NCBI RefSeq assembly: GCF_000092105.1
Contig: NC_014148.1
Span: forward strand, 1,230,001-1,262,000
Direction of reading: 5' to 3'
DNA length: 32,000 bases
Source of the DNA: Planctopirus limnophila DSM 3776
Lineage (GTDB): Bacteria > Planctomycetota > Planctomycetia > Planctomycetales > Planctomycetaceae
The translations under genes and the position numbers were made by a program. Below the pieces are notes generated by a model. That model was not told the origin of the DNA. It was given only the letters and a program-made list of their open reading frames with translations, and searched no databases. Positions 1,891-28,921 of the stretch are shown piece by piece; the first letter of the stretch is position 1, and each line of letters starts with the position of its first letter.

Positions 1891-2088
1891 CACCCTTGCC
1901 AGCAGTGCTCCTCCCACCCCGCACTCGACTCCCAGCCTTCGTGCTCTTCGTGAACTTCGTGGTAGAATCACATTTCTTACAGGGTGGCCAAAGGCGTATC
2001 TTTGAACAACTGGAAAACGCTTTTCACTAAAATGCATCCAGTGAAACGCAGCAAAGCTCCGGTTGAACTCGTGATTTTGACAGAATCC
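1857..2088. repeat. composite ~200-230-bp repeat (REP + cttcgtga..cttcgt..gaatca..cagggtggcc + hairpin GCTCCGgttgaa.tcgtgattttgaC.GA..C), copy 1
   Basis: Colinear, diverged copy at 3593-3792. The ORFs predicted here (1867-2184, 1984-2169) lie inside the repeat. Confidence 0.6.
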
Positions 2089-2270
2089 AAAAGCGGATGT
2101 GCCACTCTTCTTGCGATGCCCATAACTCAGAATGTGCATGCCGGATTTGCGGATGTTATTGATTGTTAAAAGTGGAAAACACATGCTTGCTCAGCCCCGC
2201 AAGCAGGACACGAATTTCCGAAATTCGTGAATCGCGAGTATGCCACCCCGCCAGGCCAGGAAGAATATCC

Positions 2271-2336
2271 CTTGTGGCGTCACCATCCCGGTAGAAATCA
2301 GAATTTCAACCGGGGTCACCCTGCGATTTATCAGGC
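2271..2336 (-). repeat. degenerate attC-like remnant distal to the last cassette
   Basis: Minus strand: GCCTGATAAatcgcaGGGTGACCCCGGttgaaattctgatttctACCGGGATGGTGACGCC. It resembles the 4558-4648 / 10333-10423 family (same GAAATT loop and ACC(C)GGTGACGC arm), but the terminal GTT box is lost. Confidence 0.35.
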
Positions 2337-2351
2337 TCAGTTTTGATCTTC

Positions 2352-2741
2352 TTATGGTTTAGTGACGCCTTCGAGAGCCGAGAGCCGTTCTTGGGTGAGC
2401 CGGCTGTATGTCCGGTTATGGACTAGAGGACGGATGCTGCCTCCGCGGTAGAGATCCGCCTCAAACGTGGTTTGAGCAGAACGATAATCTCTCCAGAGCT
2501 TCGATGCCTCCGAGAAGAGTCGTAGCGCCTCAGGATCTAAATCTTTGGCGACGTCCCGCTCTTTCTCAACTAGCTTTTTATCTAAATATTCAGCAATCTT
2601 ACTCGACGCAATATTCATTTCAATCTGGGTTAACGCCGACTGGAGATGCGCCTCCAAGTCCCGTAGCTTCGCATCATCAGCACGTAATGCACTGGTGAGA
2701 ACCATCGCCATAAGAACCGCATAATGAAGCTTCGTTTGCAT
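2352..2741 (-). CDS. secreted DUF1311 / LprI-like (lysozyme-inhibitor family) protein
   Basis: 129 aa with an ATG start. Signal peptide MQTKLHYAVLMAMVLTSALRA. C-terminal ASKLWRDYRSAQTTFEADLYRGGSIRPLVHNRTYSRLTQERLSAL matches the DUF1311 pattern (W..yR...C/t.fea....GGS..p......l...R...L). Confidence 0.7.
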   Translation of the reverse strand: MQTKLHYAVLMAMVLTSALRADDAKLRDLEAHLQSALTQIEMNIASSKIAEYLDKKLVEKERDVAKDLDPEALRLFSEASKLWRDYRSAQTTFEADLYRGGSIRPLVHNRTYSRLTQERLSALEGVTKP

Positions 2742-2751
2742 GTATTCTTCT

Positions 2752-2833
2752 GCCTAACGATAAAGGTAACGGCGCCGCTGCCAAAAAAACTATGTGTTCA
2801 AAATGGGCGTCATCGACGGCTACCATTCATCGC
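2752..2833 (-). repeat. attC-like imperfect palindrome (family with 5725-5805 and half-site 4033-4051)
   Basis: Minus strand: GCGATGAATGGTAGCCGTCGATGACGCC...cattttgaacacatagttttttt...GGCAGCGGCGCCGTTACCTTTATCGTTAGGC. CGATgAAtGGTA pairs with TACCTTTATCG. GTTAGGC ends 10 nt before ATG 2741. Confidence 0.5.
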
Positions 2834-2849
2834 TTTGTAATGCGTCTAT

Positions 2850-3455
2850 TCACTTTGTACAGCTTTGTGCGTGCGGCCAATACTCCAGTACATATAACCC
2901 ATCTGCAAGCAGACCCTTGCGAAAGGGTGCGCCTTGTTTCTTTGCCTCTGATACTATTCTGTTCACGTATTCGTCAAGTGATTCACCTTTGGGGCGCGCC
3001 CACGACTTCGCAGGAATTTCGTACGCGGTGACGATCCATATGTTTTCATGATATGCCAGCATCAACACAAGTTGCTCACGGGCACTCCCTTTGAAAAAGC
3101 AGGTGGCCACATCTTCCCGGCCGCCCAAAACGACGAGTTCCGTAAACCAGAGCGTCCAGCGTTGGGACCGTAGGTACTGCCCCAACGACTGAAGCGCCTC
3201 GTCGCGGGCATCGTCTTTGAGTTTGCTGAAGACGGGAATCTTGGGTAGAGGATTTGGAAGTTCATCACCTGAGAAAATGGACAGAAACTCCTCCGCAGCC
3301 GTTTCGGCTGGATGGAATTGCGTTCGGTCGTTCCGTTTCATGGGTTGAACACTCGATGCCGGAGCTCGCGTCCCATCAGCACCCCCACACCCGGAACATA
3401 AGCTTGCCACGGACAGACACAGGGCAAATGGAAAAATTACTTGTAAGCGATTCAT
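2850..3455 (-). CDS. hypothetical lipoprotein
   Basis: Single open frame across the interval. ATG at 3455 (the track start at 3461 is GTG). Lipobox-type signal MNRLQVIFPFALCLSVASLCSGC. No recognisable domain. Confidence 0.65.
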   Translation of the reverse strand: MNRLQVIFPFALCLSVASLCSGCGGADGTRAPASSVQPMKRNDRTQFHPAETAAEEFLSIFSGDELPNPLPKIPVFSKLKDDARDEALQSLGQYLRSQRWTLWFTELVVLGGREDVATCFFKGSAREQLVLMLAYHENIWIVTAYEIPAKSWARPKGESLDEYVNRIVSEAKKQGAPFRKGLLADGLYVLEYWPHAQSCTK

Positions 3456-3486
3456 CAGCACAACGCACCTTGTAAGCGAGTGGTCA

Positions 3487-3590
3487 GCCTAACGACGGGC
3501 ATCACCGAGCACGAGCGGTTGACTCAGCGCAAGTCAAAACGGCCGATCGAGTGCTTCGTGTGCATGCCATGGTTCTGCCACATGTTAGTC
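3487..3590 (-). repeat. attC-like site (104-nt family; also 5194-5297 and 9249-9338)
   Basis: Minus strand: GACTAAC-...GCACACGAAGCACTCGATCGGCCG-ttTTGACTtgcgctgAGTCAA-CCGCTCGTGCTCGGTGATGC-ccgtc-GTTAGGC. The outer boxes are complementary except for 1 nt, the arms pair with bulges, and there is a central 6-bp hairpin. Confidence 0.6.
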
Positions 3591-3592
3591 AT

Positions 3593-3792
3593 GTAGGGTG
3601 GGTTAAGTCTGCGCAACCCACCAGCACTTAACTCTCCCCCAACCTTCGCCCTCTTCGTGACCTTCGTAGTCGAATCAGACTTCCAGCAGGGTGGCCGAGA
3701 GTTGGCTTTGAGCGAGTGGGTGATGTGAATCACAAGAATCGTTCAATGGAGAGCGAGAAGGCTCCGGTTGAAGTCGTGATTTTGACGGAGCC
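3593..3792. repeat. composite repeat, copy 2 (REP 3593-3624 + hairpin GGCTCCG-18 nt-CGGAGCC at 3761-3792)
   Basis: Colinear with 1857-2088. ORF 3524-3733 is encoded entirely by repeat sequence. Confidence 0.6.
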
Positions 3793-3794
3793 AT

Positions 3795-3826
3795 GTAGGG
3801 TGGGTTAAGTCTGCGCAACCCACCAG
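3795..3826. repeat. REP hairpin GTAGGGTGGGTTaagtctgcgcAACCCACCAG
   Basis: Identical to 12595-12626, the hairpin just downstream of the uvrB stop. Confidence 0.85.
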
Positions 3827-3865
3827 CATCTACTACATGTTTACTGGAATTAGCGATCGAAAAGG

Positions 3866-3938
3866 CCTAACTCCCAAACTTCTTCGGCTTCGGAACTCTT
3901 CCGCGCTGGGCAGGCTTTTCTTCTCCACGGGCGGCGGC
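3866..3938 (-). pseudogene. orphan duplicate of the last 24 codons + stop of uvrB
   Basis: The 73 nt at 3866-3938 match 12655-12727 with 3 mismatches and encode ...[22 protein letters not shown]. There is no upstream uvrB body. It ends on the gene strand in GTTAGGC (GTTAGGT in the real gene). Confidence 0.85.
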
Positions 3939-3940
3939 GA

Positions 3941-4035
3941 CAAATTCAAAGGAGTCACGGACTCTTTGTTGTTTCAACAATTTCTTGTGACTGTCGTCAC
4001 CCAGACGTGCAAAACCTCGTCTGGGCCACCCTGCC
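3941..4035 (-). repeat. ~95-110-nt MITE/REP-like element (GGCAGGGTGGCCCAGACG..CGTCTGGGTGACgacaGTCACaagaaattgttg...gaattt)
   Basis: Copies at 5103-5196 and 11281-11388 in the same orientation, and a partial inverted copy at 29290-29345. It contains an 8-10-bp hairpin CCCAGACG(TG)/(CA)CGTCTGGG and a GTGAC/GTCAC hairpin. Confidence 0.75.
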
Positions 4036-4051
4036 GGCTCCCGTTCACCGC
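4033..4051 (-). repeat. 5' half of an attC-like site, truncated
   Basis: The 19-mer gccggctcccgttcaccgc is identical to 5787-5805 (the R''-side arm of the 5725-5805 site). Here it is followed directly by the 3941-4035 element instead of the 3' arm. The TGA stop of gene 4045-4545 lies inside CGGTGAAC. Confidence 0.55.
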
Positions 4052-4545
4052 TTGGTTCTGTCGCGTTCACGCCGATAGGGTTTCGATCCCGGCATGACAT
4101 CTGTCGTCCATGCAGTGGATTCGACATGACCGTCGAGCAAATCCAGAAATGCATACCCAATATCTTTGAGATGCGCGCGATCGATATCAAAGAAGTCCCT
4201 CCCTACGATTCCCAACGAGTTGATGGTGTCAGCGTTCAGCGGTGCATCGGATTTGTCAAGCGCTGCTATCAATGAGTCAATCGCTTTTCGTACGACACTT
4301 TGGCGCTCAGGTGTCGCCGCAGCGAATTCCATTTCGTGAGGGACACATCCGCCAAAATAAATGGATGACGCAAGAAGCCATCGATTTCGTATTTCAGGTG
4401 TTGCCGCGTGTTCGCCAAGGTCGTTAGGCTCGGGAAGGTGTAAGGCCAACATTCGTAGCCATAAAGTGAGCATGCCGTCGGTCATCCAGAAGCCGGGCTC
4501 GTTGCCGGTGGTGCCTTCCGTAATTGTGACAAACGTGGTTCCCAT
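4045..4545 (-). CDS. hypothetical protein (cassette ORF)
   Basis: 166 aa. ATG at 4545 lies 12 nt after a GTTCTGT box. No recognisable domain. Confidence 0.6.
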   Translation of the reverse strand: MGTTFVTITEGTTGNEPGFWMTDGMLTLWLRMLALHLPEPNDLGEHAATPEIRNRWLLASSIYFGGCVPHEMEFAAATPERQSVVRKAIDSLIAALDKSDAPLNADTINSLGIVGRDFFDIDRAHLKDIGYAFLDLLDGHVESTAWTTDVMPGSKPYRRERDRTKR

Positions 4546-4557
4546 ATGGATTCAGCG

Positions 4558-4648
4558 ACAGAACGTCACGCGTCACCGGGTACGCGCGAAAAAATCAGAA
4601 CTTCAAAACCGCCTGACTCGCGTGCTCCGGGGCACGCGAGTGTTACCC
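4558..4648 (-). repeat. attC-like site (91-nt family with 10333-10423)
   Basis: Minus strand: GGGTAAC-act-CGCGTGCCCCGGAGCACGCG-31 nt-CGCGTACCCGGTGACGCG-tgac-GTTCTGT. It has the same two bulged bases as its sister site plus 2 mismatches. Confidence 0.65.
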
Positions 4649-4660
4649 GCCCGTCATTGG

Positions 4661-5080
4661 CTAAATGCACCACAACCCAAACGCTTGATCAACAGCGTCA
4701 CGACCTTGATCGATCACTTTTAGGCACATGGGACAATACAGCATGTCTTCGTACGATTCTAAGTTGGTGATGGCTGAAGAGCAAACGGTACAGTGTTTGC
4801 CGCGCCAATCAGTGACATAGTCGTTTTTGGATTCGAGTCCCGCAAGACGCTGTAAGTCCGATTCGAGCAAATCAATGGCATTAAGCATCGGTTTCGATTT
4901 GCCCCAATGATCGATTGTGATTGAGCGCATCTTGGCGAAATGTAGTGCCGCTTGGGCCAGCAGTTCTATTTTGGCTTCACTTGAGACCAGAGTCATCCGC
5001 TTCGCTATCGACAGGATCGCGCCGTCCTCACGTGAAATCGCGAATGTCGGTGGCGTATCCGGATGATCAAGGTCGAGCAT
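4661..5080 (-). CDS. hypothetical protein with C-terminal CxxC...CxxC (Zn-ribbon-like)
   Basis: 139 aa with an ATG start. Contains ...KHCTVCSSAITNLESYEDMLYCPMCLKV.... Confidence 0.6.
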   Translation of the reverse strand: MLDLDHPDTPPTFAISREDGAILSIAKRMTLVSSEAKIELLAQAALHFAKMRSITIDHWGKSKPMLNAIDLLESDLQRLAGLESKNDYVTDWRGKHCTVCSSAITNLESYEDMLYCPMCLKVIDQGRDAVDQAFGLWCI

Positions 5081-5102
5081 GAGTCTTTGTCCGGTAACAC
5101 AG

Positions 5103-5196
5103 AAAATTCATAGGGGTCAGGACTCTTGGTTGTCTCAACAATTTCTTGTGACTGTCGTCATCCAGACGTGCAAAGCCACATCTGGGCCACCCTGCC
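5103..5196 (-). repeat. MITE/REP-like element copy (same family as 3941-4035)
   Basis: Sits between the GTTAGGC box (5200-5194) and ATG 5080, i.e. in the cassette leader. Confidence 0.75.
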
Positions 5197-5297
5197 TAAC
5201 GACGGGCATCACCGAGCACGAGCGGTTGACTCAGCGCAAGTCAAAACGGCCGATCGAGTGCTTCGTGTGCATGCCATGGTTCTGCCACATTTTAGTG
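5194..5297 (-). repeat. attC-like site (104-nt family)
   Basis: Nearly identical to 3487-3590. The 5' box is degenerate (CACTAAA) and contains the TAA stop of gene 5292-5711. It ends in GTTAGGC. Confidence 0.6.
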
Positions 5298-5711
5298 ATG
5301 GTTCGCGTCCATGTCATCAGGTTCGATGATCGGTGTACCGGCCATGAGTCTGGCCGAGAAGGCATCGAATGATGGGGACAGTTCTCGAAAGTCCTCCCAT
5401 TGAAGCGACGTTGCGGGAATGTCACCGACAGCACCAGTTCCGTTTTCACGAACATCAATTGCATATAGTTCGCCACATCCATCAGTGCCGAAGCCGAGCA
5501 GTCCGGGCGCGAATTCATCAAATCCGTATTCTCGGCTGAATTGCAAAACGTCACGCAACGGCCACATGCACACCAAACCAGAGCCAATTGACTCGATATC
5601 CATTTTTACGGCCCCGTGTTGACAGTGAAAATCAACGAACGATTGCGGCATTGTCTTTGGACATGCCGCAAGGAAATCGTCAATCTCAGTTTGGGTTGGA
5701 ATCAAGGGCAT
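5292..5711 (-). CDS. SMI1/KNR4 (SUKH-superfamily) immunity-type protein
   Basis: 139 aa. TEIDDFLAACPKTMPQSFVDFHCQHGA... and ...LLGFGTDGCGELYAIDV... match the SMI1_KNR4 pattern (N-terminal l..lP..y..f....g; central fg.dg.G..y..d). Confidence 0.75.
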   Translation of the reverse strand: MPLIPTQTEIDDFLAACPKTMPQSFVDFHCQHGAVKMDIESIGSGLVCMWPLRDVLQFSREYGFDEFAPGLLGFGTDGCGELYAIDVRENGTGAVGDIPATSLQWEDFRELSPSFDAFSARLMAGTPIIEPDDMDANHH

Positions 5712-5724
5712 TGGTGGCTTAGTG

Positions 5725-5805
5725 GCAGAACGACAGCGGTAACGGGGCCGCCGCCAAAAAACTATGATTTCAAATCTCGCGTCATCGCCGGCTCCCGTTC
5801 ACCGC
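5725..5805 (-). repeat. attC-like site (family with 2752-2833)
   Basis: Minus strand: GCGGT[G]AACGGGAGCCGGCGATGACGCG-agatttgaaatcatagtttttt-GGCGGCGGCCCCGTTACCGC-tgtc-GTTCTGC. GCGGTgAACGGG pairs with CCCGTTACCGC, leaving one bulged G. Confidence 0.5.
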
Positions 5806-5809
5806 ATTT

Positions 5810-6463
5810 TTATCCGTCTTTTCGCGCAAGATCAGTGACCAGCAGTGGATTCGATTTGCGATGCAGTTCAATGATCTCTTCGCAAGTTGTGGACTTGTTC
5901 ATCAGGCTGTCGAGCTCCGACTGCGTGATGCCGAAGGCTTGAATGAAGTCTACGTGACCGTGCGGAGTTTCTGCCGCCTGAAGCTTTGTGTCATGCACGA
6001 ATGCGAGGCCCACAATGTCAGTTTCATGGTCAGCGCGAATTGGACCGTTGGCAGGAATCCAGTGGTAGTTGTCAAACCATTTGCCAGATTCAAATACGTA
6101 CCGAGCAAGATTCTGCAATAAGTTGCAGACCCAGATTGGTTCTTCCCTTGGCGGGAGCGAGCTCGCCAATCGAAAAGTCATTTCGAATCCGAACTTGCTG
6201 AAATCACCACCCACTGATTCTTCATCGTAGTACAGCGAGGAATATCCGAACGTCACAAAGTGCAAGTGGTCAATGCCCCCATCTTCACACGGATAGGCGC
6301 TGATACCGTCAAGTGGATCAGGACCACCAAGACGGTGGCTTATGATGGTCCCCCAGTGCTTGGGTTCGAGGTCACCATACTCGTCGCGCAGGCTGGCATT
6401 CAACGAATCCCAACCGGGCGATGAGTCTTCGGCGAAACGTCGCTTGTATTCTTTAAGGTCCAT
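5810..6463 (-). CDS. Suppressor-of-fused (SUFU)-like family protein (bacterial immunity-type)
   Basis: 217 aa. ...HLHFVTFGYSSLYYDEESVGGDFSKFGFEMTFRL... is the hallmark SUFU-domain core (H..yvt.GlseLy....e....sG.GfElt.Rl). Confidence 0.8.
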   Translation of the reverse strand: MDLKEYKRRFAEDSSPGWDSLNASLRDEYGDLEPKHWGTIISHRLGGPDPLDGISAYPCEDGGIDHLHFVTFGYSSLYYDEESVGGDFSKFGFEMTFRLASSLPPREEPIWVCNLLQNLARYVFESGKWFDNYHWIPANGPIRADHETDIVGLAFVHDTKLQAAETPHGHVDFIQAFGITQSELDSLMNKSTTCEEIIELHRKSNPLLVTDLARKDG

Positions 6464-6472
6464 AGACGTGAC

Positions 6473-6562
6473 GGATAACGACCAAGATCAGCCGGTTGCC
6501 GCGACTGACGTTCCAATGTGTGCGCAGCCCATCGGCAACTCGGCTGCATCTTTTTGTTACTT
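6473..6562 (-). repeat. attC-like site (90-nt family with 7008-7097, 8064-8154, 8662-8753)
   Basis: Minus strand: AAGTAAC-aaaaagatgcagccGAGTTGCCGatgggc...gcggCAACCggctgatcttggtc-GTTATCC. The GTT box lies 9 nt before ATG 6463. Confidence 0.6.
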
Positions 6563-6575
6563 GCGTTTTGTGCGT

Positions 6576-6953
6576 TCAGTATTCGCCGTAGGGCCAGCCT
6601 GCCTGCAGTATTTTGCCGTCAGACACAATGATTTTTGCCTCACACGGCTTGTGGTCACCACCTCCGCCAGCCAAAACATTATAAGCGTGAATCTTTTTGT
6701 CGCCATCAGTCTTCGTCCTGTCAGCCAGCGACAACAATTCTGCGTAGTCTGCGGAAGGTCTGCCTGCGAGATCATCTTTTGCACTGATGAGCCAACGAAT
6801 CTCGTTCAGGAGTTCGTCTTGTCGTTCCTCCTGGGCTTGCGTCAGTGAATGGGTCGTCCAGCCGTCAACATCTGGGTTTCGGGTGCACCCGCAGACAGCC
6901 ACCAGCCACAGGCTGAAGCTGGCTATCGCCATGTAGGTTTGCGGCGAAGGCAT
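6576..6953 (-). CDS. hypothetical lipoprotein
   Basis: ATG at 6953 (the track start at 6980 is TTG). MPSPQTYMAIASFSLWLVAVCGC is a lipobox-type signal. Confidence 0.6.
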   Translation of the reverse strand: MPSPQTYMAIASFSLWLVAVCGCTRNPDVDGWTTHSLTQAQEERQDELLNEIRWLISAKDDLAGRPSADYAELLSLADRTKTDGDKKIHAYNVLAGGGGDHKPCEAKIIVSDGKILQAGWPYGEY

Positions 6954-7007
6954 TGTGAATGTCCCTTGTTGGTTCCGCAAGACGACAGCCGCCCGGGCAG
7001 TATTTGC

Positions 7008-7097
7008 AAGTAACGGCTAAAATCACGCGGTTGCGGCCAAGTGACTTACCATCAGGAAACGCGCGATCCGCAACTCGCGTGCATTTTTTTGTTCTGT
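7008..7097 (-). repeat. attC-like site (90-nt family)
   Basis: Minus strand: (TGA)CAGAAC-aaaaaaatgcacgcGAGTTGCGGatcgcgcg...ggCCGCAACCgcgtgattttagcc-GTTACTT. The 5' box abuts the TGA stop of gene 7097-7501. Confidence 0.6.
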
Positions 7098-7501
7098 CAC
7101 GTTTTGGGGAGATCGCCAAAGTCGTCGGCGATCAGTTCGATTTCGCCCGTTTCGTGATCCCACCAGTATACCGAATGCTGTAGCGTGTCGGGATGCTCCG
7201 ACATTGGTATCAGCACCAGCAAATCACCGCCACCGTTTGCGCCAATCGCCACGGCGTCTGTCGGAAATGCATACCAGTCTTTTCTCGCGGTGGTTGTTTC
7301 TCGGTCAATGCTACTGCATGTTCGTTGGATGAGTTTGCGATCGGACTCGTCAAGAATCGGGAATAACTCAAAGTGGTCGATCCGAGTTCGAACAGTGCCA
7401 CCATTCTTTTGTACCATCGCCGTCACGAATGACGCCGGAAATCGCACACCGAGTTTCTGCTCGGTCTGCCTGATCCATTTTTCGTCAACAGGGAACGGCA
7501 T
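7097..7501 (-). CDS. SMI1/KNR4 (SUKH-1) immunity-type protein
   Basis: 134 aa. IRQTEQKLGVRFPASFVTAMVQKNGG (classic SMI1_KNR4 N-terminus), ...AVAIGANGGGDLLVLIP..., ...VYWWDHETGEIELIADDFGDL. Confidence 0.85.
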   Translation of the reverse strand: MPFPVDEKWIRQTEQKLGVRFPASFVTAMVQKNGGTVRTRIDHFELFPILDESDRKLIQRTCSSIDRETTTARKDWYAFPTDAVAIGANGGGDLLVLIPMSEHPDTLQHSVYWWDHETGEIELIADDFGDLPKT

Positions 7502-7522
7502 TGCAGTGATAGGTTTCCAGTG

Positions 7523-7768
7523 ACAGAACAGGTATTCGACCGCCGAAGTGCGGTAGAATTTTACCGCACTTCGGCGGCGTAGTATGGACGTGTCGAAATT
7601 GATTTGTCAAACTGCGAAAATAGTTGCGACGAACCGCTGATGACAACTCCATGCGACTCCGCACTTGGCCTCCATAGTAGGCCGCACTCTTCACAATCGC
7701 GACCCGACGTGCGTCCGTCACCTCCAGCCTGACACCAATCGCAGCGGTTAGCACAAACGAGTCCTGCC
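7523..7768 (-). repeat. ~245-nt composite repeat: conserved ~85-nt 5' module + attC-like palindrome ending GTTCTGT (copy 1 of 3)
   Basis: Copies at 10972-11218 and 11774-11980. Conserved module: GGACTCGTTTGTGCTAACCGCTGCGATTGGTGTCAGGCTGGAGGTGACGGACGCACGTCGGGTCGCGATTGTGAAGA. The arms CCAAGTGCGG... / ...CCGCACTTCGG pair. This copy has an extra perfect 16-bp hairpin at 7540-7577. Confidence 0.55.
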
Positions 7769-8043
7769 TCTTTTTCTGACCCGTCGTCGGTATGCCCACC
7801 GATGTCCTGGTATCCGAACATATCCTCGGTCATCTCGTGCTCTAGACGCACGTCAATCCGGTGCCCGCTGTGGTCTGCCAAGAACTTCGAAAGCACTTGG
7901 TTGAGTTGCTGCCGCGCCCAGTGAGCAGGTTCTTCGGGCCCGCCAATATGGAAAGCAAACGGACGGTAGTTGCAATGGAGCGCCTTACCAAGGAACAGCG
8001 ACTGTCGGCAGTCGTGGCAGTTTAAGTAGCCGTAAATGCTCAT
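7561..8043 (-). CDS. hypothetical protein; 3' third is read out of the composite repeat
   Basis: ATG at 8043 (MSIYGYLNCHDCRQ...). The track start at 8130 lies inside the upstream attC-like site. The unique sequence ends near 7775 without a stop. The frame continues through the repeat (…GLVCANRCDWCQAGGDGRTSGRDCEECG…) to TAA at 7561. Confidence 0.5.
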   Translation of the reverse strand: MSIYGYLNCHDCRQSLFLGKALHCNYRPFAFHIGGPEEPAHWARQQLNQVLSKFLADHSGHRIDVRLEHEMTEDMFGYQDIGGHTDDGSEKEAGLVCANRCDWCQAGGDGRTSGRDCEECGLLWRPSAESHGVVISGSSQLFSQFDKSISTRPYYAAEVR

Positions 8044-8063
8044 CGCCGTGAAGACCTCTGGTT

Positions 8064-8154
8064 GCCGAACGGCTAAAATCACTCGGTTGCCGCTAAGAGA
8101 CTTTGACTTCAGGAAACGCCCGATCGGCAACTCAGGTGCATTTTTTGGTTCGTC
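8064..8154 (-). repeat. attC-like site (90-nt family)
   Basis: Minus strand: GACGAAC-cAAAAAT[G]CAC[C]TGAGTTGCCG-atcgggcgtttcctgaagtcaaagtctcttag-CGGCAACCGAGTGATTTT-agcc-GTTCGGC. The outer boxes are complementary except for 1 nt. Confidence 0.6.
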
Positions 8155-8162
8155 CTTGTCTG

Positions 8163-8543
8163 CTATTCAGGATGATACTTTCCGGACGAAAGTCCATCGA
8201 ACAACTCAATCGGGTTAGCGGTAAACTTCGCCGCATTCGAATTGCGAACAGCAGCAAGCAGCAAATCTAATTTGGGTTCAGCAAGAATATCGTTCGTGAG
8301 CACCAGCAGCCAATCAAAGTGACAGGCCAACTTTGTCACACCGTTTGCAAATTCTTTGTATTCCGTCGGAAGGGCAATCCTGCACGATACTTCCACGATT
8401 CTTGCGGTCTCGTAGACAAAATGGATGCGGTTCCCGTTTTCCGATCCCCACATCAGGATCTCGTTCGACCATGAATGATACTGATGTGAAATGGCGTCAA
8501 CAATCGGCGCCACGTCACAGCCGGGTTGTTGCTGCCATGCCAA
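8163..8543 (-). CDS. hypothetical protein (cassette ORF)
   Basis: 126 aa. TTG start at 8543 is preceded by GAGGA 7 nt upstream. The start is uncertain and no domain is recognised. Confidence 0.5.
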   Translation of the reverse strand: MAWQQQPGCDVAPIVDAISHQYHSWSNEILMWGSENGNRIHFVYETARIVEVSCRIALPTEYKEFANGVTKLACHFDWLLVLTNDILAEPKLDLLLAAVRNSNAAKFTANPIELFDGLSSGKYHPE

Positions 8544-8661
8544 ATCAAAATCCTCAGCAATCGAGGATTGGGGCAGCGTGCCGTACTTGGCGATCAGTAG
8601 ACCGCAAGGAAGCAGCCCGAATCGGTACTAATGCACAGCCAAATGGTTGCTCCCTTCGGAG

Positions 8662-8753
8662 GACGAACGGCAACCATCACCGAGTGGCCGCCGAAAAAGG
8701 TTCTATAGTCGAGCGCCGCCGATCGGCCAATTCGGTGCATGGTTTTGTTATCG
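8662..8753 (-). repeat. attC-like site (90-nt family)
   Basis: Minus strand: CGATAAC-aaAACCAT[G]CACCGAatTGGCCgatcggcgg...cggcGGCCActCGGTGATGGTT-gcc-GTTCGTC. Confidence 0.6.
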
Positions 8754-8762
8754 GACTGTTCG

Positions 8763-9230
8763 TCAATCCCAGAAGTTGAAGATGATCTCTCCGGACGTGC
8801 TTGGATTGTGCACAAGAATCTGATCGTATTCTGAATCCGACATGTCAACAAGCTCCATTTTGTGAGGAGGAATTGTCAAGTCAGAATGGCTAAGTATCGC
8901 ATAGCCACCAATCTCATTCCAGTAAATGGCGTATTCAGGACGATCAATGAATTTGGCAATCACCTCGCCAACACACATCGGTTCCGCAAATGCGAGCATT
9001 GGATAGTGAGCGTTGAAAAGAATCGCGAACCCATCACTATTGGTCTCGAATGTCACACTGGTGAAGTTCTTCTCCGCCGTCCCAACTCTGCGATCGACCC
9101 GAACAATTTTTGCAGCTAGTTTTCTGGCGAATGCATAACAGTGATTAAGGAATGCTGATTCGTCAGTAGATGGTGGCGGCGGGTCGAGATAGTAATAGAA
9201 CCCCGTGATTCCATAAGGCGGGCGCTGCAT
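8763..9230 (-). CDS. hypothetical protein (cassette ORF)
   Basis: 155 aa with an ATG start (MQRPPYGITGFYYYLDPPPP...). No recognisable domain. Confidence 0.6.
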   Translation of the reverse strand: MQRPPYGITGFYYYLDPPPPSTDESAFLNHCYAFARKLAAKIVRVDRRVGTAEKNFTSVTFETNSDGFAILFNAHYPMLAFAEPMCVGEVIAKFIDRPEYAIYWNEIGGYAILSHSDLTIPPHKMELVDMSDSEYDQILVHNPSTSGEIIFNFWD

Positions 9231-9248
9231 CTCGTCCTTTCCTGTTTC

Positions 9249-9338
9249 CGATAACGTTGGGGTTCAGCGGGCACGAGTGGTTGAGTCGCCATTGCGAAAA
9301 CGGCTGATCGAGTACTCCGTTGCAACCCATTGTTATCG
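9249..9338 (-). repeat. attC-like site (related to the 104-nt family)
   Basis: Minus strand: CGATAAC-...GGGTTgCAaCGGaGtACTCGATCAGCCG-ttttcgcaatggcgactcaa-CCACTCGTGCCCGCTGAACCCC-aac-GTTATCG. The outer 7-mers are perfectly complementary. The TAA stop of gene 9333-9881 lies inside CGATAAC. Confidence 0.65.
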
Positions 9339-9881
9339 CAATTTTCGATCTTCGAATGCGATGGATTTCAAACAGGCAATGTCGATTGATTGGGCATTTG
9401 CATCGTCCGGTTGTTGCACTACGTTCGACTCAATTCCGAATTGAGTCAATCGGCCGTGCAACCATTCCATCTCTGTTCTTGTTCCAGTATACACGACGCC
9501 GGGCATGCGGTTTTTCATAGGAGCGACCTCTTCCATGGTCGTGTTCAAATCGCAATGAAGAATCTTGCAGGCTTGAAGTCGTTTTGGGCCTTCGACAGTG
9601 ATTTGCAATCCCCATCTTCCTGAGGATTCCATGATCTCGTCGCGAATCTCGTTCGGTGGCAGTCCATAGTCGTCGGCTTCAATTGCCATTCCGCAGCTCG
9701 CGCACCGCGTTGATTTAAACCATACAAGACTGGCACCAGCAACGGATTGCCCAAATGCAATGGATGCAGCTGCGCCACAGTCAGTGCATTTGTCCGTATG
9801 AGTCACCATTGATCGTGTCGATCCGTCGGTTTGATAGCGATAACGTCCCGCATCAGCGGGCGGCGGGAGTAAAGCTTCCAT
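9333..9881 (-). CDS. hypothetical protein with CxxC-(26)-CxxC Zn-ribbon-like motif
   Basis: ATG at 9881 (MEALLPPPADAG...). The track start at 10010 is TTG and would overlap the upstream gene by 56 nt. Contains KCTDCGAAAS...STRCASCG. Confidence 0.5.
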   Translation of the reverse strand: MEALLPPPADAGRYRYQTDGSTRSMVTHTDKCTDCGAAASIAFGQSVAGASLVWFKSTRCASCGMAIEADDYGLPPNEIRDEIMESSGRWGLQITVEGPKRLQACKILHCDLNTTMEEVAPMKNRMPGVVYTGTRTEMEWLHGRLTQFGIESNVVQQPDDANAQSIDIACLKSIAFEDRKLR

Positions 9882-9954
9882 TTGTAAAATCGTCTCCACC
9901 GCCGCTCCGTTGCATGCGATGGTTTGCCACAACGTCCTGTGTGACTTAAGGTTA

Positions 9955-10308
9955 TCAAATCCAACCCGCCTTGGCACATGCGGCTGCCGCAATGCCGAGT
10001 AATCCGCCAACGAAGTACGCAGTCGATGACAGTGGCCACGCCGTAAACGAACCGTGGAGCAATCGTTTTCGAATCGCGTGAAGCCCCGTCAGGACGAACG
10101 CGGATCCAACAAGAATCGGAACTACATTTGGCCAGTTTACAAATACACCCAGAATCTGAAGTAGTCCGAAGAATACGAACGCACCGAAGCAAACGGCTTT
10201 CATCGCTGTAATCACAACAAACACTATCCGCTGAGGAGCGGAGGCAGTGTCGATGCCGGAACGCTCAACGCTTGCTGTGCTGGCCAGTGGTGGATCGTAA
10301 GGATTCAT
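9955..10308 (-). CDS. small integral membrane protein (3-4 predicted TM helices)
   Basis: ATG at 10308 (MNPYDPPLAS...). The track start at 10344 is a GTG inside the attC-like site. Hydrophobic stretches: IVFVVITAMKAVCFGAFVFFGLLQILGVF, VVPILVGSAFVLTGL, YFVGGLLGIAAAACA. Confidence 0.6.
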   Translation of the reverse strand: MNPYDPPLASTASVERSGIDTASAPQRIVFVVITAMKAVCFGAFVFFGLLQILGVFVNWPNVVPILVGSAFVLTGLHAIRKRLLHGSFTAWPLSSTAYFVGGLLGIAAAACAKAGWI

Positions 10309-10332
10309 GTTACCGAACGAGTTGTGCTTGTT

Positions 10333-10423
10333 GGCGAACGTCACGCGTCACCGGGTACGCGCGAAAAACTGTCAATTTCAAAACCGCCCGATTCGCGTAC
10401 TCCGGTGCACGCGATTGTTACCC
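10333..10423 (-). repeat. attC-like site (best-formed example)
   Basis: Minus strand: GGGTAAC-aat-CGCGT[G]CACCGG[A]GTACGCG-32 nt-CGCGTACCCGGTGACGCG-tgac-GTTCGCC. An 18-bp perfect stem carries two single-base bulges 6 bp apart on the 5' arm. It starts 1 nt after the TAG stop at 10425. Confidence 0.7.
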
Positions 10424-10424
10424 G

Positions 10425-10943
10425 CTACTTCACCACCCATAATGGCAGTCGTTTCTTAAGTGCGTAGCGAGCAAGTGGAAGCAGTTGGGTAAAAGTTTGG
10501 ATCTCCATGTCGTCGTCGATTAGATCATCATCGTCAGCATAGTGATGGTACAGTTTATCTAGCGAATCGTCATCCGTCGGAAGATTTAGGGCGTTACCGA
10601 TTAGTTCAAGTTCGGCAATTAGATTTGACAGGCAGCCGATGTCCAAATTTGTCGCATCGCCCGGGAATTCAAACGTTCCTGTTTCAGTCTCGATCGGGAC
10701 ATAAACGCCACTCCATGCTTCCATCGACAAGAAGTGCGGAATGGCTTCGGCACCGCACGCATCCGCCGCTCGTTGTTGAAGCGTGGACCATCCGGACCAG
10801 CCCAATTCGTAGGAGTAACGTTCGTCAGTGGAGTCGTAATCGATCGCGTCACCGAAGTGAGCGCGCAATGTGTCCGCAACGAGAGTGCCATGCGGTTCCG
10901 TAAATACAGTCGTCGGTGCAGAAACAGTGAAGACGAGTGCCAT
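10425..10943 (-). CDS. acidic hypothetical protein (cassette ORF)
   Basis: ATG at 10943 (MALVFTVSAPTT...). The track N-terminal extension is repeat-encoded. Asp-rich C-terminal half (…HHYADDDDLIDDDMEIQ…). Confidence 0.6.
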   Translation of the reverse strand: MALVFTVSAPTTVFTEPHGTLVADTLRAHFGDAIDYDSTDERYSYELGWSGWSTLQQRAADACGAEAIPHFLSMEAWSGVYVPIETETGTFEFPGDATNLDIGCLSNLIAELELIGNALNLPTDDDSLDKLYHHYADDDDLIDDDMEIQTFTQLLPLARYALKKRLPLWVVK

Positions 10944-10971
10944 GCCAATGGAGTCAGAAAAGGATTTGGTC

Positions 10972-11218
10972 GGGTAACAGGTATTCGACCGCCAAAGTAC
11001 GGTAGAAAATTGCTGTAGTTTTGCGGTGTGGCGTGGACTTGTCAATTTTAATGTGCCAGATTCTCCAAAGATCTACGACAGATCGTCTCACACAGTCCCA
11101 TGCTATACCGCATTTGGCTACCATACTATGCCGCATTCTTCACAATCGCGACCCGACGTGCGTCCGTCACCTCCTGCCTGACACCAATCGCAGCGGTTAG
11201 CACAAACGAGTCCTAACC
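10972..11218 (-). repeat. ~245-nt composite repeat, copy 2 (ends GTTACCC)
   Basis: Shares the 85-nt module and the terminal ...CTACCGTACTTTGGCGGTCGAATACCTGTTACCC with copies 1 and 3. Confidence 0.55.
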
Positions 11219-11227
11219 CCGTATCCC

Positions 11228-11275
11228 CCACCAACGAGCCGGAAGCGTAAGCGACGGGCACTCTAAAGAGATCAA
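11228..11275. repeat. dispersed ~48-nt repeat (as 1724-1771)
   Basis: ccaccaacgagccggaagcgtaagcgacgggcactc is identical to 1724-1759. Confidence 0.8.
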
Positions 11276-11280
11276 CGCCG

Positions 11281-11388
11281 AAAATTCAAAGGGATCAAAA
11301 ATTCAAAGAGGCCAGGACTCTTCGTTGTCTAAACGATTTCTTGTGCCTATCCTCACCCAGACGTGCAAAGCCACGTCTGGGCCACCCC
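11281..11388 (-). repeat. MITE/REP-like element copy
   Basis: Same family as 3941-4035 and 5103-5196, with a duplicated aaattcaaag end. Confidence 0.7.
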
Positions 11389-11411
11389 CCGATTGTTTGC
11401 CGATTTGTCTG

Positions 11412-11759
11412 CTACGGGCTTCTTCCACTTTCGATCATTTGGAAGTCGTTGCCTTGCTTATGTCTCCATTCTCCCCAAACTACTCCTGTGATCGCAATCG
11501 GCAATAGGGTAAGGCTGATCTTCTTGATGTGATCGTCGGTGAACGACTCCAAGTCCAATCGGAATATCCGGGTTTCAGTCAAACCTGGGGGCGCTGTATG
11601 CGTCCGTGTAATGTCTAATTGAATTCTCTCAACGACCAGGGTGCCAATCGCCCATTCCCAGTAATCCTCAGCATCGAACGAAACGTCGGCAAGACCGAGG
11701 ATATCGGCAATCTCCTCCAGCGAGCATGTCGATCTGAACCAGATGTCCGTAATTTCCAT
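11412..11759 (-). CDS. hypothetical protein (cassette ORF)
   Basis: ATG at 11759 (MEITDIWFRSTCSLEEIADILG...). The track N-terminal 21 aa are repeat-encoded. Confidence 0.55.
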   Translation of the reverse strand: MEITDIWFRSTCSLEEIADILGLADVSFDAEDYWEWAIGTLVVERIQLDITRTHTAPPGLTETRIFRLDLESFTDDHIKKISLTLLPIAITGVVWGEWRHKQGNDFQMIESGRSP

Positions 11760-11773
11760 TGTATTGCCAGTCG

Positions 11774-11980
11774 GCAGAACAGGAATTCGACCGCCGAAGT
11801 GCGGTAGATATTGATTTGTCAAACTGCGAAACGACTTGCGACGAACCGCTGATTATAACTTCATGCTACACCGCACTTGGCCACCAGACGTTGCCGCAAT
11901 CTTCACAATCGCGACCCGACGTGCGTCCGTCACCTCCAGCCTGACACCAATCGCAGCGGTCAGCACAAACGAGTCCTGCC
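11774..11980 (-). repeat. composite repeat, copy 3 (ends GTTCTGC; 5' box GCGGCAAC)
   Basis: Minus strand: ...GCGGCAAC-gtctggtgg-CCAAGTGCGGTGTAG-58 nt-CTACCGCACTTCGG-cggtcgaattcct-GTTCTGC, 14 nt before ATG 11759. Confidence 0.55.
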
Positions 11981-12059
11981 CCCTTTTCCTCCCCTGGGCC
12001 AACCTGCCATTTTTACCTCCGCAGCAGAAAGATGCGGCTCAGCAATCTGTGAGTGGCAC

Positions 12060-12500
12060 TTACAATCTCACATTAACACCTTTCTGATAAAACATATCAG
12101 CCTCGACTGAGGCCAAAGTCTTGGGATGCCAAGCCAGCTCTTCTTCCTGCACCGAGCGGGTAATCATCCGGCCAAGCAAGTATGCATCTCCCACTGCTGA
12201 ATACTGCCAGAAAGTGGTATCCTGATTCCCAATCTCTCGCTTGAAAATAAGATAGGCCAAGTCGAAGAAAACCCTCGCCCAAAACTTGCGCTCATCTCGC
12301 GTGGGAAACTCCCGCTCAATCGCGAACTCATAACCCGGAAAGAACGCGACGCTCCTCTCCCGAAGTCCAGCGATGAAAGGTCTCTCACCATCTGAATCTG
12401 CCGTTTTCTCCGCGACCTGCAATCCAAACTCAATCAGCGAATGAAACCGCTGATTGGAGACGTAGAAGAACTGGTCTTGGTAGGAGATGCAACTGGACAT
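12060..12500 (-). CDS. hypothetical protein (first ORF downstream of uvrB)
   Basis: 146 aa with an ATG start (MSSCISYQDQFFYVSNQRF...). No recognisable domain. Confidence 0.6.
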   Translation of the reverse strand: MSSCISYQDQFFYVSNQRFHSLIEFGLQVAEKTADSDGERPFIAGLRERSVAFFPGYEFAIEREFPTRDERKFWARVFFDLAYLIFKREIGNQDTTFWQYSAVGDAYLLGRMITRSVQEEELAWHPKTLASVEADMFYQKGVNVRL

Positions 12501-12594
12501 ATGCGAGAGATACCTGACTTGTGACTCTCTGGATCAAACGCTCTGAAAATACCATTTGCAAGCTGCACATCAATCGAAAAAGCCATTTAGCCAT

Positions 12595-12626
12595 GTAGGG
12601 TGGGTTAAGTCTGCGCAACCCACCAG
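12595..12626 (-). terminator. REP hairpin 28 nt downstream of the uvrB stop (probable terminator/REP)
   Basis: GTAGGGTGGGTTaagtctgcgcAACCCACCAG with an 8-bp GC-rich stem. Identical to 3795-3826. No clear U-tract, so terminator function is an inference. Confidence 0.45.
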
Positions 12627-12655
12627 CATTAAATAAATAAACCAGTCGATAACAC

Positions 12656-14779
12656 CTAACTCCCAAACTTCTTCGGCTTCGGAACTCTCCCGCGCTGGGC
12701 GGGCTTTTCTTCTCCGCGGGCGGCGGCACCTCGACTTTTACGCCGGCCTCGATTCTTCGGTTCCCGATCGCGCTGGGTCGTCAGGTCTTCATCCGCCTGA
12801 ATCGCCTGGCCCACCTGCTTCTTGAGTTGCAGAATCCGGTCACGTAGTTGAGCAGCCCGTTCAAAGTCGAGACTTTCCGCCGCCTTGAGCATTTCCGCTT
12901 CAAGCTCTGAAATGTATTCCAGTGTGACGTACTCGACCTCGCTTGACTTGCCACTGGCCTGCTGCACAATCTTGTTTGCCTCGGCATCCTCTTCAATCCC
13001 TCGCCGGATCGATTTGCGGATGGTTTCGGGCGTGATGCCGTGCTTTTTGTTATACGCCACCTGGAGTTCACGGCGGCGGTTGGTTTCATCAATCGCCAGC
13101 TGCATGCTGTTCGTGACCGAATCGGCATACAGATAGACCTCTGCATTAACGTTTCGTGCAGAGCGGCCAATCGTTTGAATGAGACTGGTTTCGCTACGCA
13201 GGAAGCCTTCTTTATCGGCATCGAGAATTGCAACCAGCGAAACTTCAGGAATATCAAGACCTTCTCGCAACAGGTTCACACCCACGAGCGTATCGTATTT
13301 CCCCTCGCGCAGTTCGCGAATGATTTCGACACGCTCGAACGCATCGAGTTCGCTATGCAGCCAGGCGCAGCGTAAACCTTCTTCGCGGAGATAAGCGGTC
13401 AGATCTTCGCAGAGTTTCTTGGTGAGGGCGGTGACCAGCACGCGCTCGTCTTTCTCGGCACGTCCTTTAATCAGCCCCATCAAGTGCTGTACCTGCCCGC
13501 GCGAAGGATGAATATGGATGACCGGATCGACCAGTCCGGTGGGACGGATCACCTGCTCGACAATCTCACCTTGCGACTGTTCTAATTCCCAGTCGGAAGG
13601 GGTGGCCGATACAAAAATGGCCTGCTTACGGCGAGTCTCCCATTCATCAAATTTGAGAGGCCTGTTATCCAAAGCCATGGGCAAGCGGAAGCCGTGTTCG
13701 ACCAGTGTCGTTTTCCGCGCATGATCGCCATTGAACATCGCACGAATCTGCGGAATTGTTACATGCGATTCATCAATAAACGTGAGGAAATCATTAGGAA
13801 AGAAGTCGAGTAGCGTATAGGGTGGTTCACCAGGCGGCCTGCCAGAAAGGGCTCGGCTATAGTTTTCGATCCCGGGGCAGAAGCCAACTTCGCGCAAAAG
13901 TTCCAGGTCGTGCCGGGTGCGGGCATTGAGCCGTTGAGCTTCGAGAAGTTTGCCTTCTTTTTTGAACTTTTCGAGTTGTTCGGCTAATTCCTTTTCGATC
14001 TCGGCCACAGCACTCGCGACACGATCTTCCGGGAGGACATAGTGCTTAGCCGGATAAATATAGATCTCTTCCAACGAGCGCACTTCATCACTCGTTACCG
14101 GGTGAATGATGGAGAGTTTGTCGATCTCATCTCCCCACAGCTCAATGCGATAGGCAAATTCCTCGTAAGCGGGCCAAACGTCGATCACATCGCCCCGCAC
14201 ACGAAAGTTGGCCCGTTCGGGTGCATGGTCATTCCGGGTGTACTGGATATCGCAAAGTTTGCGGAGCAGTTCGTCTCGATCAATGGATTCCCCCTTACGC
14301 AGAGGGATCATCATTTCGAGATAATCTTTGGGAGAACCCAGCCCGTAAATACAACTGACAGAAGCCACCACAATCACATCCCGCCGGCTCACCAGAGCAC
14401 TCGTCGCGAGCAGACGAAGCCTGTCGATTTCTTCGTTAATCGACGAGTCTTTTTCGATATAAATATCCCGCTGAGGGATATAAGCCTCCGGCTGATAGTA
14501 GTCGTAGTAGCTCACAAAATAAGTGACGGCGTTATGCGGGAAGAATTCTTTAAACTCGGCATAAAGCTGTGCCGCCAGCGTCTTGTTGTGAGACAACACA
14601 AGTGCCGGCCGTTGAAGCTGCTCGATGACATTCGCCATGGTGAATGTCTTCCCCGAACCGGTGACCCCCAGCAGTGTCTGATTCTTTCGATCGTTCTTCA
14701 GGCCTTTGACGAGCGCTTCAATCGCTTTGGGTTGATCCCCTGCGGGACGAAAACGGGAATCTATCTGAAACTGTGGCAT
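12656..14779 (-). CDS. uvrB: excinuclease ABC subunit B
   Basis: 707 aa. N-terminus [20 protein letters not shown], Walker [24 protein letters not shown] (DExH), and a C-terminal UVR motif [29 protein letters not shown] ~60-aa Arg/Lys-rich tail follows. Confidence 0.97.
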
Positions 14780-14826
14780 AGCTACTTTTCCCCGACTGAG
14801 CGATCACCCATCCTACGATTCTCAAT

Positions 14827-18766: not shown

Positions 18767-18768
18767 TC

Positions 18769-28903: not shown

Positions 28904-28921
28904 GCTGGAAAGTGGGGGTTG

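Follow-up and report, generated by a model that had tools for sequence, protein, structure and literature searches.

About sixteen integron gene cassettes without a nearby integron integrase lie behind uvrB in a Planctomycetaceae chromosome

Gene cassettes between uvrB and an epimerase gene

Directly behind the uvrB gene of a Planctomycetaceae chromosome lies a group of about 16 integron gene cassettes without a nearby integron integrase, and this group is the subject of the present analysis. The cassette array spans positions 2276-12655 on the minus strand of the window, by which we mean the whole 32-kb stretch of DNA that was analysed, and it is bounded by uvrB on one side and by an SRPBCC/epimerase gene on the other. 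The uvrB gene (12656-14779, minus strand) has the same orientation as the cassettes and matches the Pfam families UvrB_inter, UvrB, Helicase_C and UVR, in agreement with an original prediction, drawn from the letters of this stretch, that the upstream neighbour is uvrB and not attI or intI. The downstream gene (1-1380, minus strand; SRPBCC/epimerase/DUF1731 type) is cut by the left end of the window and also flanks the array in L093, a related genome (contig VFQR01000490.1, GCA_006365015.1) that was reached via a 99%-identical homologue of the cassette-8 protein. GC content is 0.59 in the flank (1-2000) and 0.49-0.54 over 2001-13000. Between 2352 and 12500 lie sixteen co-oriented minus-strand open reading frames (ORFs) of 0.35-0.68 kb, bearing out the count and strand of the sixteen short head-to-tail ORFs that had been predicted. 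Twelve imperfect palindromes of 90-92 nt, all on the minus strand and about 0.5-1.1 kb apart, each occupy a gap between cassettes. These are the attC sites, whose outer boxes are R″, with AAC as its last bases, and R′, with GTT as its first.

All cassettes and sites are given here from the uvrB end to the distal end, and all lie on the minus strand. The ORF of cassette 1 (12060-12500) encodes 146 amino acids (aa) and matches no family. Cassette 2 (11412-11759, also given as 11412-11822) is common to L093 (12590-13089) and is followed by an attC remnant (11387-11403) that consists of R″ (TCGGCAAAC) and the spacer, the remainder having been replaced by a copy of a dispersed repeat, element B; the intact version of this site is present at L093 13078-13167. 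Cassette 3 (10425-10943, no family) is followed by the attC at 10333-10423 (R″ GGGTAAC, R′ GTTCGCC), and cassette 4 (9955-10308, also given as 9955-10344), which encodes a membrane protein with a counterpart at L093 9478-9975, by the attC at 9838-9928 (R″ GGCAAAC, R′ GTTATCG). The next three ORFs match no family: cassette 5 (9333-9809), Cys-rich, with its attC at 9249-9338 (R″ CGATAAC, R′ GTTATCG), cassette 6 (8763-9230) with 8662-8753 (R″ CGATAAC, R′ GTTCGTC), and cassette 7 (8163-8543) with 8064-8154 (R″ GACGAAC, R′ GTTCGGC). The frame of cassette 8 (7561-8043, also given as 7561-8130) continues into a repeat that we call element A.

Cassette 9 (7097-7501) encodes an SMI1/KNR4 (SUKH-1) protein and ends in the attC at 7008-7097 (R″ ACAGAAC, R′ GTTACTT). 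Cassette 10 (6576-6953), with a lipoprotein-like N-terminus and no family, is followed by 6473-6562 (R″ AAGTAAC, R′ GTTATCC), cassette 11 (5810-6463), with a SUFU domain, by 5725-5815 (degenerate R″ GGATAAA, R′ GTTCTGC), and cassette 12 (5292-5711), again SMI1/KNR4 (SUKH), by 5194-5285 (R″ GCAGAAC, R′ GTTAGGC). The site behind cassette 13 (4661-5080, no family) lies at 4558-4648 (R″ GGGTAAC, R′ GTTCTGT) and is 89% identical to 10333-10423. Cassette 14 (4045-4545, no family) is followed by a truncated attC at 4033-4064, in which R″ (GCGACAGAAC) and L″ are present before the site is cut by another copy of element B; that the palindrome after this ORF is truncated had been noted correctly. The attC at 3487-3578 is a 98% duplicate of 5194-5285 and is preceded by a repetitive extragenic palindromic (REP) element, not an ORF. 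Beyond it lie cassette 15 (2850-3461), lipoprotein-like and without family, with the degenerate attC at 2752-2843 (R″ GCATTAC, weak stem), and cassette 16 (2352-2741), with an LprI lysozyme-inhibitor domain, followed by an attC remnant without R′ (2276-2321) that is 93% identical to L093 14513-14555.

Family matches were obtained for only four of the sixteen cargo proteins, namely the two SMI1/KNR4 (SUKH) proteins, the SUFU protein and the LprI protein. The SUKH, SUFU and LprI families are typical immunity or inhibitor proteins in the polymorphic-toxin literature, and the cargo as a whole, with its lipoproteins and unknowns, may have accessory roles in immunity or of a defence type. Searches of the cargo proteins against PADLOC and NCBIfam gave no meaningful match to anti-phage defence. 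A polymorphic-toxin immunity-gene island, in which orphan immunity genes were gathered by a process other than an integron, would account for these four proteins. However, family scans of the window proteins found no toxin, Rhs, contact-dependent inhibition (CDI) or secretion genes, the remaining twelve ORFs carry no such domain, and the units are delimited by attC sites with the integron recombination signatures described below; such an island is very unlikely and describes at most part of the cargo. Transcription of the cassettes may come from uvrB read-through or start at internal promoters; sigma-70-like internal promoter sites are not enriched in the array, where 7 were observed and 8.2 expected.

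Fold, confinement and pairing of the attC sites

As single-stranded DNA, an attC site of this array usually folds into a 7-nt R″ box, a spacer of 3-4 nt, 5 bp, a 1-base bulge, 6 bp, a second 1-base bulge and about 7 bp; after a loop region of some 34 nt, the 3′ arm leads through a 4-nt spacer to R′. Two sites deviate from this fold: the lowest-energy structure of 4558-4648 consists of two local hairpins, and the arms of 2752-2843 pair weakly. The alignment comprises eleven distinct sites over 94 columns, with a mean column identity of 65%; AAC, from the RYYYAAC consensus of R″, is present in ten of these sites and GTT in all eleven, and the RRRY part of the GTTRRRY consensus is kept loosely (e.g. 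GTTCGCC, GTTCTGT). Covariation was scored on a structure that we specified ourselves, with 500 shuffles and slides of the pairing partner by 1-3 columns as controls. Across the 18-bp stem, 93.1% of cells are paired, compared with 32-48% in the slid controls. Compensatory changes, on both sides of the pair, occur in 14 of the 18 stem pairs, and the observed score was reached by none of the 500 shuffles.

The extrahelical bases are found at positions 16 and 23 of the top strand, within its AAC arm and with 6 bp between them, and the site at 5194-5285 and its duplicate at 3487-3578 carry three of them (16/20/24). Published attC sites have extrahelical bases at 16 and 23/24, with an optional one at 20, in the AAC arm and with a first-to-last spacing of 6 bp (PMC5027507). 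Single-strand folding, covariation and these positions agree with the original prediction of an attC fold whose bulges lie in the 5′ arm, and the 18-bp stem with two bulges 6 bp apart that it described at 10333-10423 is found there as 5+6+7 bp, bulged in the 5′ arm. The last extrahelical base is the usual T, and the length of 90-92 nt falls within the 57-141 bp, with variable terminal structure, by which attC sites are recognised. Boxes, stems and extrahelical bases are intact in nine of the twelve sites. As to the individual boxes, the ten R′ GTT boxes listed earlier are all present at their coordinates, and two more, at 9844 (site 9838-9928) and 5731, were missing from that list. The AAC boxes listed with them stand except for two, neither of which is R″: CGGTGAAC at 4045 is the L″ box of the truncated site, whose true R″ is the GCGACAGAAC within 4033-4064, and CACTAAA at 5292 belongs to the stop-codon region, immediately upstream of a site whose true R″ is GGCAGAAC (5279-5286). 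For the site after the cassette 4 ORF, the true R″ is GGCAAAC at 9928, not GATAAC at 9955.

Rfam has no attC family, and the attC model of IntegronFinder is replaced here by a covariance model (R1) that we derived from the sites of the window itself. With filters off, R1 finds only the twelve sites in the whole 32 kb, all on the minus strand, with scores such as 90.6 bits for 10333-10423 and 64.6 bits for the degenerate 2752-2843, and the next best match remains below 10 bits. We also fetched 80 uvrB loci from elsewhere in the Planctomycetota, none with a UvrB more than 82% identical, and scanned the 57 of planctomycete type (906 kb) with R1. No array lies behind uvrB in these 57 loci, which gave one lone R1 match, and the 80 fetched loci contain neither homologues of the cassette proteins nor a conserved downstream gene. 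The palindromes might be thought of as ordinary REP elements or bacterial interspersed mosaic elements (BIMEs) that fell by chance between small genes, with no site-specific recombination, and other short dispersed repeats (a REP hairpin and the elements B and C) are indeed abundant in the array and elsewhere in the window. However, the 91-nt sites lie nowhere in the window but in the array, all on one strand, and once in 906 kb of related uvrB loci; this confinement, which is also the outcome of the check for scattered palindromes put forward with the prediction, rules out, within the sequence available, a distribution like that of REPs or BIMEs. Neither the complementarity of R″ to the 5′ end of its own cassette nor the GTT-precise polymorphism described below is predicted by any REP model. 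We give this explanation scarcely any probability and reject it for the 91-nt sites by confinement and cassette logic, while the 26-nt REP hairpin and elements B and C do behave in this way. The lone match elsewhere belongs to a Schlesneria metagenome-assembled genome (MAG; locus L010, 2443-2533, 30 bits, E = 1e-4), where the site follows a 120-aa ORF converging on uvrB and is possibly an isolated cassette.

A further signature concerns the circular form of the cassette. If cutting takes place between the G and the TT of the R′ box and the cassette passes through a circle, R″ should complement the TTxxxx with which its own cassette opens. We compared R″ with the upstream R′ over seven positions beyond AAC/GTT, using 100,000 partner permutations. 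With the R′ that opens its own cassette, R″ shows complementarity at 66 of 84 positions, and with its own 3′ R′ at 28 of 84; permuted partners gave a mean of 32, and 66 was reached in 0 of the 100,000 permutations. For example, GTTCTGTCAC (7529) pairs with GTGACAGAAC (7097), and GTTCTGCC (5731) pairs with GGCAGAAC (5286). Even in the truncated site, the R″ GCGACAGAAC complements GTTCTGTCGC at 4564 in 10 of 10 positions.

Cassette turnover and the integrase question

The PQQ-repeat gene, uvrB and the epimerase gene of L093 are 89-92% identical to those of the window, and between uvrB and the epimerase gene L093 carries an array of about 14 small genes in which R1 finds ten sites. Only three cassettes are common to both genomes: cassette 2 (92.6%), cassette 4 (98.2%) and cassette 8 (89%). 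Cassettes 4 and 8 are adjacent in L093, which lacks the cassettes 5-7 that separate them in the window, and cassette 2 lies upstream of both in the window and downstream of both in L093. Every breakpoint of homology between the window and L093 falls at the GTT of an R′ box. The comparison of strains that had been proposed as a check thus supports the cassette interpretation, content and order differing with breakpoints exactly at GTT. Cassette 4 shows 9 mismatches in 498 positions, where 7.6% would be expected from uvrB (92.4% identical; binomial P = 8.5e-9), and this greater similarity suggests exchange after the lineages diverged.

Related sites are also found in metagenomes. Nine contigs were recovered with a 22-mer taken from the site at 10333-10423, in its 3′ arm, and on these R1 gives 29 strong one-stranded matches, about 0.3-1.4 kb apart, with 1-6 matches per contig and at least two on eight of the nine. 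None of the window's cassette proteins is encoded on the nine contigs; only the attC sites are common, at 84-95% identity. The relation between R″ and the upstream R′ holds in these metagenomic arrays at 118 of 140 positions, a value reached in 0 of 100,000 permutations.

Pfam and NCBIfam scans, together with tblastn using IntI1, detected no IntI or IntI remnant in the 32-kb window; the tblastn search returned nothing better than E = 0.5. No integrase lies within the 20-kb L093 locus. The earlier statement that the 32 kb hold no IntI-like gene is therefore borne out, though a tyrosine recombinase that is not IntI does exist at 21478-22797, about 9 kb from the array head. This recombinase, the only one of its kind in the window, matches Xer-type models only and far below their cutoffs; it does not match TIGR02249, and it belongs to a tRNA-Val island described below.

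An integrase remnant does accompany a relative of cassette 8. The cassette-8 protein family has 65 homologues, mostly of 90-145 aa, and is widespread in Planctomycetota. In L098, a Planctomycetales MAG (GCA_016794185.1), the homologue is the first gene after a 61-aa IntI-like ORF (9639-9824), whose best NCBIfam match is the C-terminus of TIGR02249 (E = 5e-25, ~30 bits above the Xer models). This IntI remnant is co-oriented with the cassette array and lies about 150 nt upstream of it. The homologue begins with GTTCGGCC and ends in an ordinary attC, whose R″ (GCCGAAC) matches the 5′ GTTCGGC. R1 scores the L098 sites weakly, at 15-33 bits, and they thus represent a different attC subfamily. The window resembles such planctomycete integrons in that the cassette family that comes first after the co-oriented IntI remnant has the same 5′ boundary, GTTCGGC, and differs in that uvrB holds the integrase position. 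Inverted integrons, in which intI is co-oriented with the cassettes, reportedly form a known planctomycete group. Two serine recombinases are found near the L098 IntI remnant.

We conclude with high confidence that the region is a chromosomal integron gene-cassette cluster without adjacent integrase (CALIN), as originally predicted: attC architecture, confinement, turnover at GTT in L093 and the absence of IntI all agree. A CALIN comprises two or more attC sites on one strand, and here twelve lie on the minus strand; neither an integron integrase (within 4 or 10 kb) nor a pseudogene is found nearby. A complete integron it is not, with uvrB at the head and no IntI. Several observations nevertheless weigh against this conclusion. 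At position 16 the top strand has G, so that the bottom strand carries C in place of the usual G. The spacer between R and L boxes is 3-4 nt per arm, compared with the usual 5-6 nt, because the stem starts at position 11, so that the layout is alike but shorter. Several sites are degenerate or destroyed (2752-2843, the AAA of R″ at 5815, the truncated 4033-4064 and three replacements by element A), and part of the array is therefore probably immobile. Neither an attI-like site nor the 5′ boundary of cassette 1 is identifiable in the window; to our knowledge, attI and the cassette promoter Pc are not recognisable by sequence in the planctomycete clade. Finally, since no integrase was found, we infer rather than observe recombination activity.

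Each unit of the array consists of a short ORF followed by its 90-92-nt attC. The steps of the mechanism are taken from established integron biology and transferred to this locus. The bottom strand of each attC (the plus strand of the window) would fold into a hairpin in which the R and L boxes are paired and some bases remain extrahelical. This hairpin would be bound, and cut between G and TT, by an IntI tyrosine recombinase whose gene lies elsewhere, and cassettes would be excised as circles and then re-inserted. An integrase may be acting, or may recently have been active, in trans. Later damage to the array came from events that are not site-specific, namely the duplication of the uvrB end, the REP, B and C repeats and the replacement of three attC sites by element A.

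Another possibility, which we consider doubtful, is that the array is a fossil, built by a past integrase in a genome without working IntI and now inert and decaying. It would fit the lack of IntI within 19 kb upstream, elsewhere in the window and in the 20-kb L093 locus, the degenerate or broken sites already named together with the remnant at 2276-2321, the element A replacements, and the rearrangements inside the array that are not site-specific. On the other side stand the nine sites with intact boxes, stems and extrahelical bases, the 98.2% identity of cassette 4 against about 92% for core genes, which points to exchange after the split, and the turnover of cassettes at exact GTT boundaries since then.

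The original prediction had also allowed for the distal part of a sedentary integron, and a segment of a complete sedentary integron with intI and attI contiguous just outside the window would be consistent with the homogeneous attC sites (65% mean column identity), with the 12-16 cassettes and with the apparent location of the bottom strands on the leading-strand template, as in most sedentary integrons (25 of 30; PMC5371416). The last point comes from the plus strand of the window, whose GC skew is negative throughout; as it is drawn from skew over 32 kb only, it weakly suggests, in likeness to sedentary integrons, that the attC bottom strands are on the leading-strand template. However, uvrB adjoins the array at its attI-proximal end, and the 19 kb beyond, made up of housekeeping and island genes, contain no IntI; the distal end abuts the epimerase gene, and the array of L093 is bounded likewise. 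Because both ends abut core genes, the array is not the distal end of a contiguous integron, and contiguity is left without support in either genome; we regard this alternative as extremely unlikely. Under the definition of Cury 2016, a sedentary integron has more than 19 attC sites or species-wide presence, plus an integrase, whereas here there are 12 canonical and 3 partial sites and a same-locus array was seen in only one other genome (L093). A split integron, with intI elsewhere in the genome, is possible and compatible with a CALIN.

CALINs are described and common, with 279 in a 2016 survey (PMC4889954). Like those of the survey, the array has at least two one-stranded attC sites, no intI within 4-10 kb and cargo mostly of unknown function, and like 95% of them it has no intI pseudogene nearby (PMC4889954). 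It is larger than most, as 83% have fewer than 6 sites and only 6.6% more than 10 (PMC4889954). It further differs from typical CALINs in that its position is common to two genomes, with flanks about 90% identical, and in being interrupted by host repeats and a duplicated gene end. With the Vibrio cholerae superintegron and its repeats (VCR) it shares small, mostly unknown ORFs and a homogeneous host-specific attC family, and the three extrahelical bases at 16/20/24 in some sites are like those of VCR2. Unlike the superintegron, it has no adjacent intI, attI or Pc and only 12-16 sites; its attC sites measure 91 nt against about 130 for VCR sites, and on the bottom strand they have C instead of G as the first extrahelical base. 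Xanthomonas integrons lie next to ilvD, at one housekeeping locus across relatives with cassettes that differ between lineages, and keep an intI that is often inactivated. The present array is like these in its fixed housekeeping locus and variable content, and unlike them in having no detectable intI or remnant.

The array may have arisen by insertion at a genomic secondary site or by loss of or separation from an integron. Insertion at secondary attG sites, where a trans-acting integrase can seed cassettes outside an integron into a bare GWT/GTT, has been described (Loot et al., 10.1101/2022.09.11.507474). The uvrB stop region reads GAGTTAGGTGTTATCG and contains two GTTs; no junction proving attG insertion is identifiable at the array, which is much larger than the 1-2-cassette insertions of the attG cases (Loot et al., 10.1101/2022.09.11.507474). 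The known picture of integrons is unchanged, CALINs of this size with unknown cargo being already present in IntegronFinder surveys. What the locus offers is a clean, well-bounded integrase-less cassette array in Planctomycetota, a phylum whose integrons are little studied, an attC family with an invariant C at the first extrahelical position, where G is usual, and a natural two-genome comparison in which cassette gain, loss and reordering can be followed at exact GTT junctions. It is also a potential test bed for the servicing of CALINs in trans and for what planctomycete IntI recognises.

Element A, dispersed repeats and neighbouring features

Three gaps contradict the expectation that all but one hold a palindrome, as they hold element A instead. 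This lineage-specific repeat of 200-250 nt stands at the attC position of cassettes 1, 2 and 8, with three window copies, all on the minus strand: copy 1 at 11774-11976, ending in GGTCGAATTCCT before GTTCTGC (G of GTT at 11780), copy 2 at 10972-11213, ending before GTTACCC (G at 10978), and copy 3 at 7523-7764, ending before GTTCTGT (G at 7529). L093 has three and a half copies (9241-9480, 10280-10518, 14610-14823 and 12590-12700). Among the window copies, a core of roughly 95 nt is 97% identical. The end of element A is always GGTCGAATNCCT followed by GTT, and that GTT is the true cassette boundary; only the R′-type GTT end of an attC is kept. As cassette 8 natively has a normal attC in L098, element A replaced an attC.

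The nature of element A was approached from several sides. As a known RNA it was rejected for want of an Rfam match at E <= 1. A CxxxCxxC...CxxC frame is open in all copies; a zinc-ribbon gene was nonetheless rejected, with a start codon in 2 of 7 copies and no homologue among 5.8 billion proteins. A long attC was likewise set aside, given that the fold of the 3′ half is neither conserved nor significant (z = -0.4, copy 1) and R1 gives no match. The 38-nt core has zero exact matches in JGI metagenomes. With its functional-looking R′ GTT end, element A has replaced attC at least three times in each of the two genomes. A combined reading, which we consider rather improbable, would make the locus a live satellite array serviced in trans and kept at uvrB across species, and element A either a non-coding element, so far undescribed, with attC as its target, or a long recombination site of non-canonical type. 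If the satellite array were live, promoterless cassettes would be expressed by read-through from a DNA-damage-responsive gene.

The other repeats of the locus are dispersed, and those with coordinates in the array lie on the minus strand. Element B occurs as copy 1 at 11299-11386, whose first 55 nt recur at 29290-29344, as copy 2 at 5104-5191, directly after the R′ box of the 5194-5285 site, and as copy 3 at 3942-4030, joined to a duplicated uvrB end. Element C lies at 11231-11263, with further copies at 1727-1759 and 29026-29067, so that B and C are also found outside the array at 29026-29344 and 1727-1759. Just after uvrB lies a REP-like hairpin, GGTGGGTTGCGCAGACTTAACCCACC (12599-12624), with further copies at 3799-3824, 3597-3622 and 1817-1842 and a variant at 1857-1891. 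This hairpin (GGTGGGTT-N10-AACCCACC) is found on the minus strand only and brackets both array segments; zero copies are expected by chance. The duplicated attC at 3487-3578 is fused to a REP.

A duplicate of the last ~72 nt of uvrB with its REP hairpin (3789-3938, minus strand) is 85% identical over 151 nt to 12589-12727. Its coding part has 3 substitutions and its spacer differs, and it is joined directly to the copy of repeat B that cuts the truncated attC. The duplicate splits the array into a 14-cassette and a 2-cassette part, and looks like a segmental duplication or a recombination of the flank, not an integrase event.

The array of L093 is flanked on both sides by direct B-C repeat copies (7502-7675 and 15784-16062), one with a partial and one with a complete B, and a rhodanese-like gene (6939-7481) lies between uvrB and the first of them. 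Between the PQQ-repeat gene and uvrB, L093 carries a 1.4-kb insertion (3314-4695) that is not in the window and encodes a 321-aa ORF without Pfam family.

The recombinase at 21478-22797 belongs to an integrative island of 7.4 kb at tRNA-Val(TAC) (21445-21518), where the integrase overlaps the 3′ end of the tRNA. The island is bounded by 119-nt direct repeats (21487-21603 and 28908-29026, 92% identical) and also carries a DUF3987/primase-type protein (23111-25711) and ORFs of unknown function. At 18149-21297, a gene for a sigma factor of the extracytoplasmic function (ECF) type (Sigma70_r2) is followed by one for an 842-aa Ser/Thr kinase-WD40 fusion, both unrelated to the array. Just outside the right repeat of the island, seven near-perfect tandem copies of a 17-nt unit, AGCGACGGGCACTCAGT, occupy 29054-29174 and are contiguous with the element C copy at 29026-29067.

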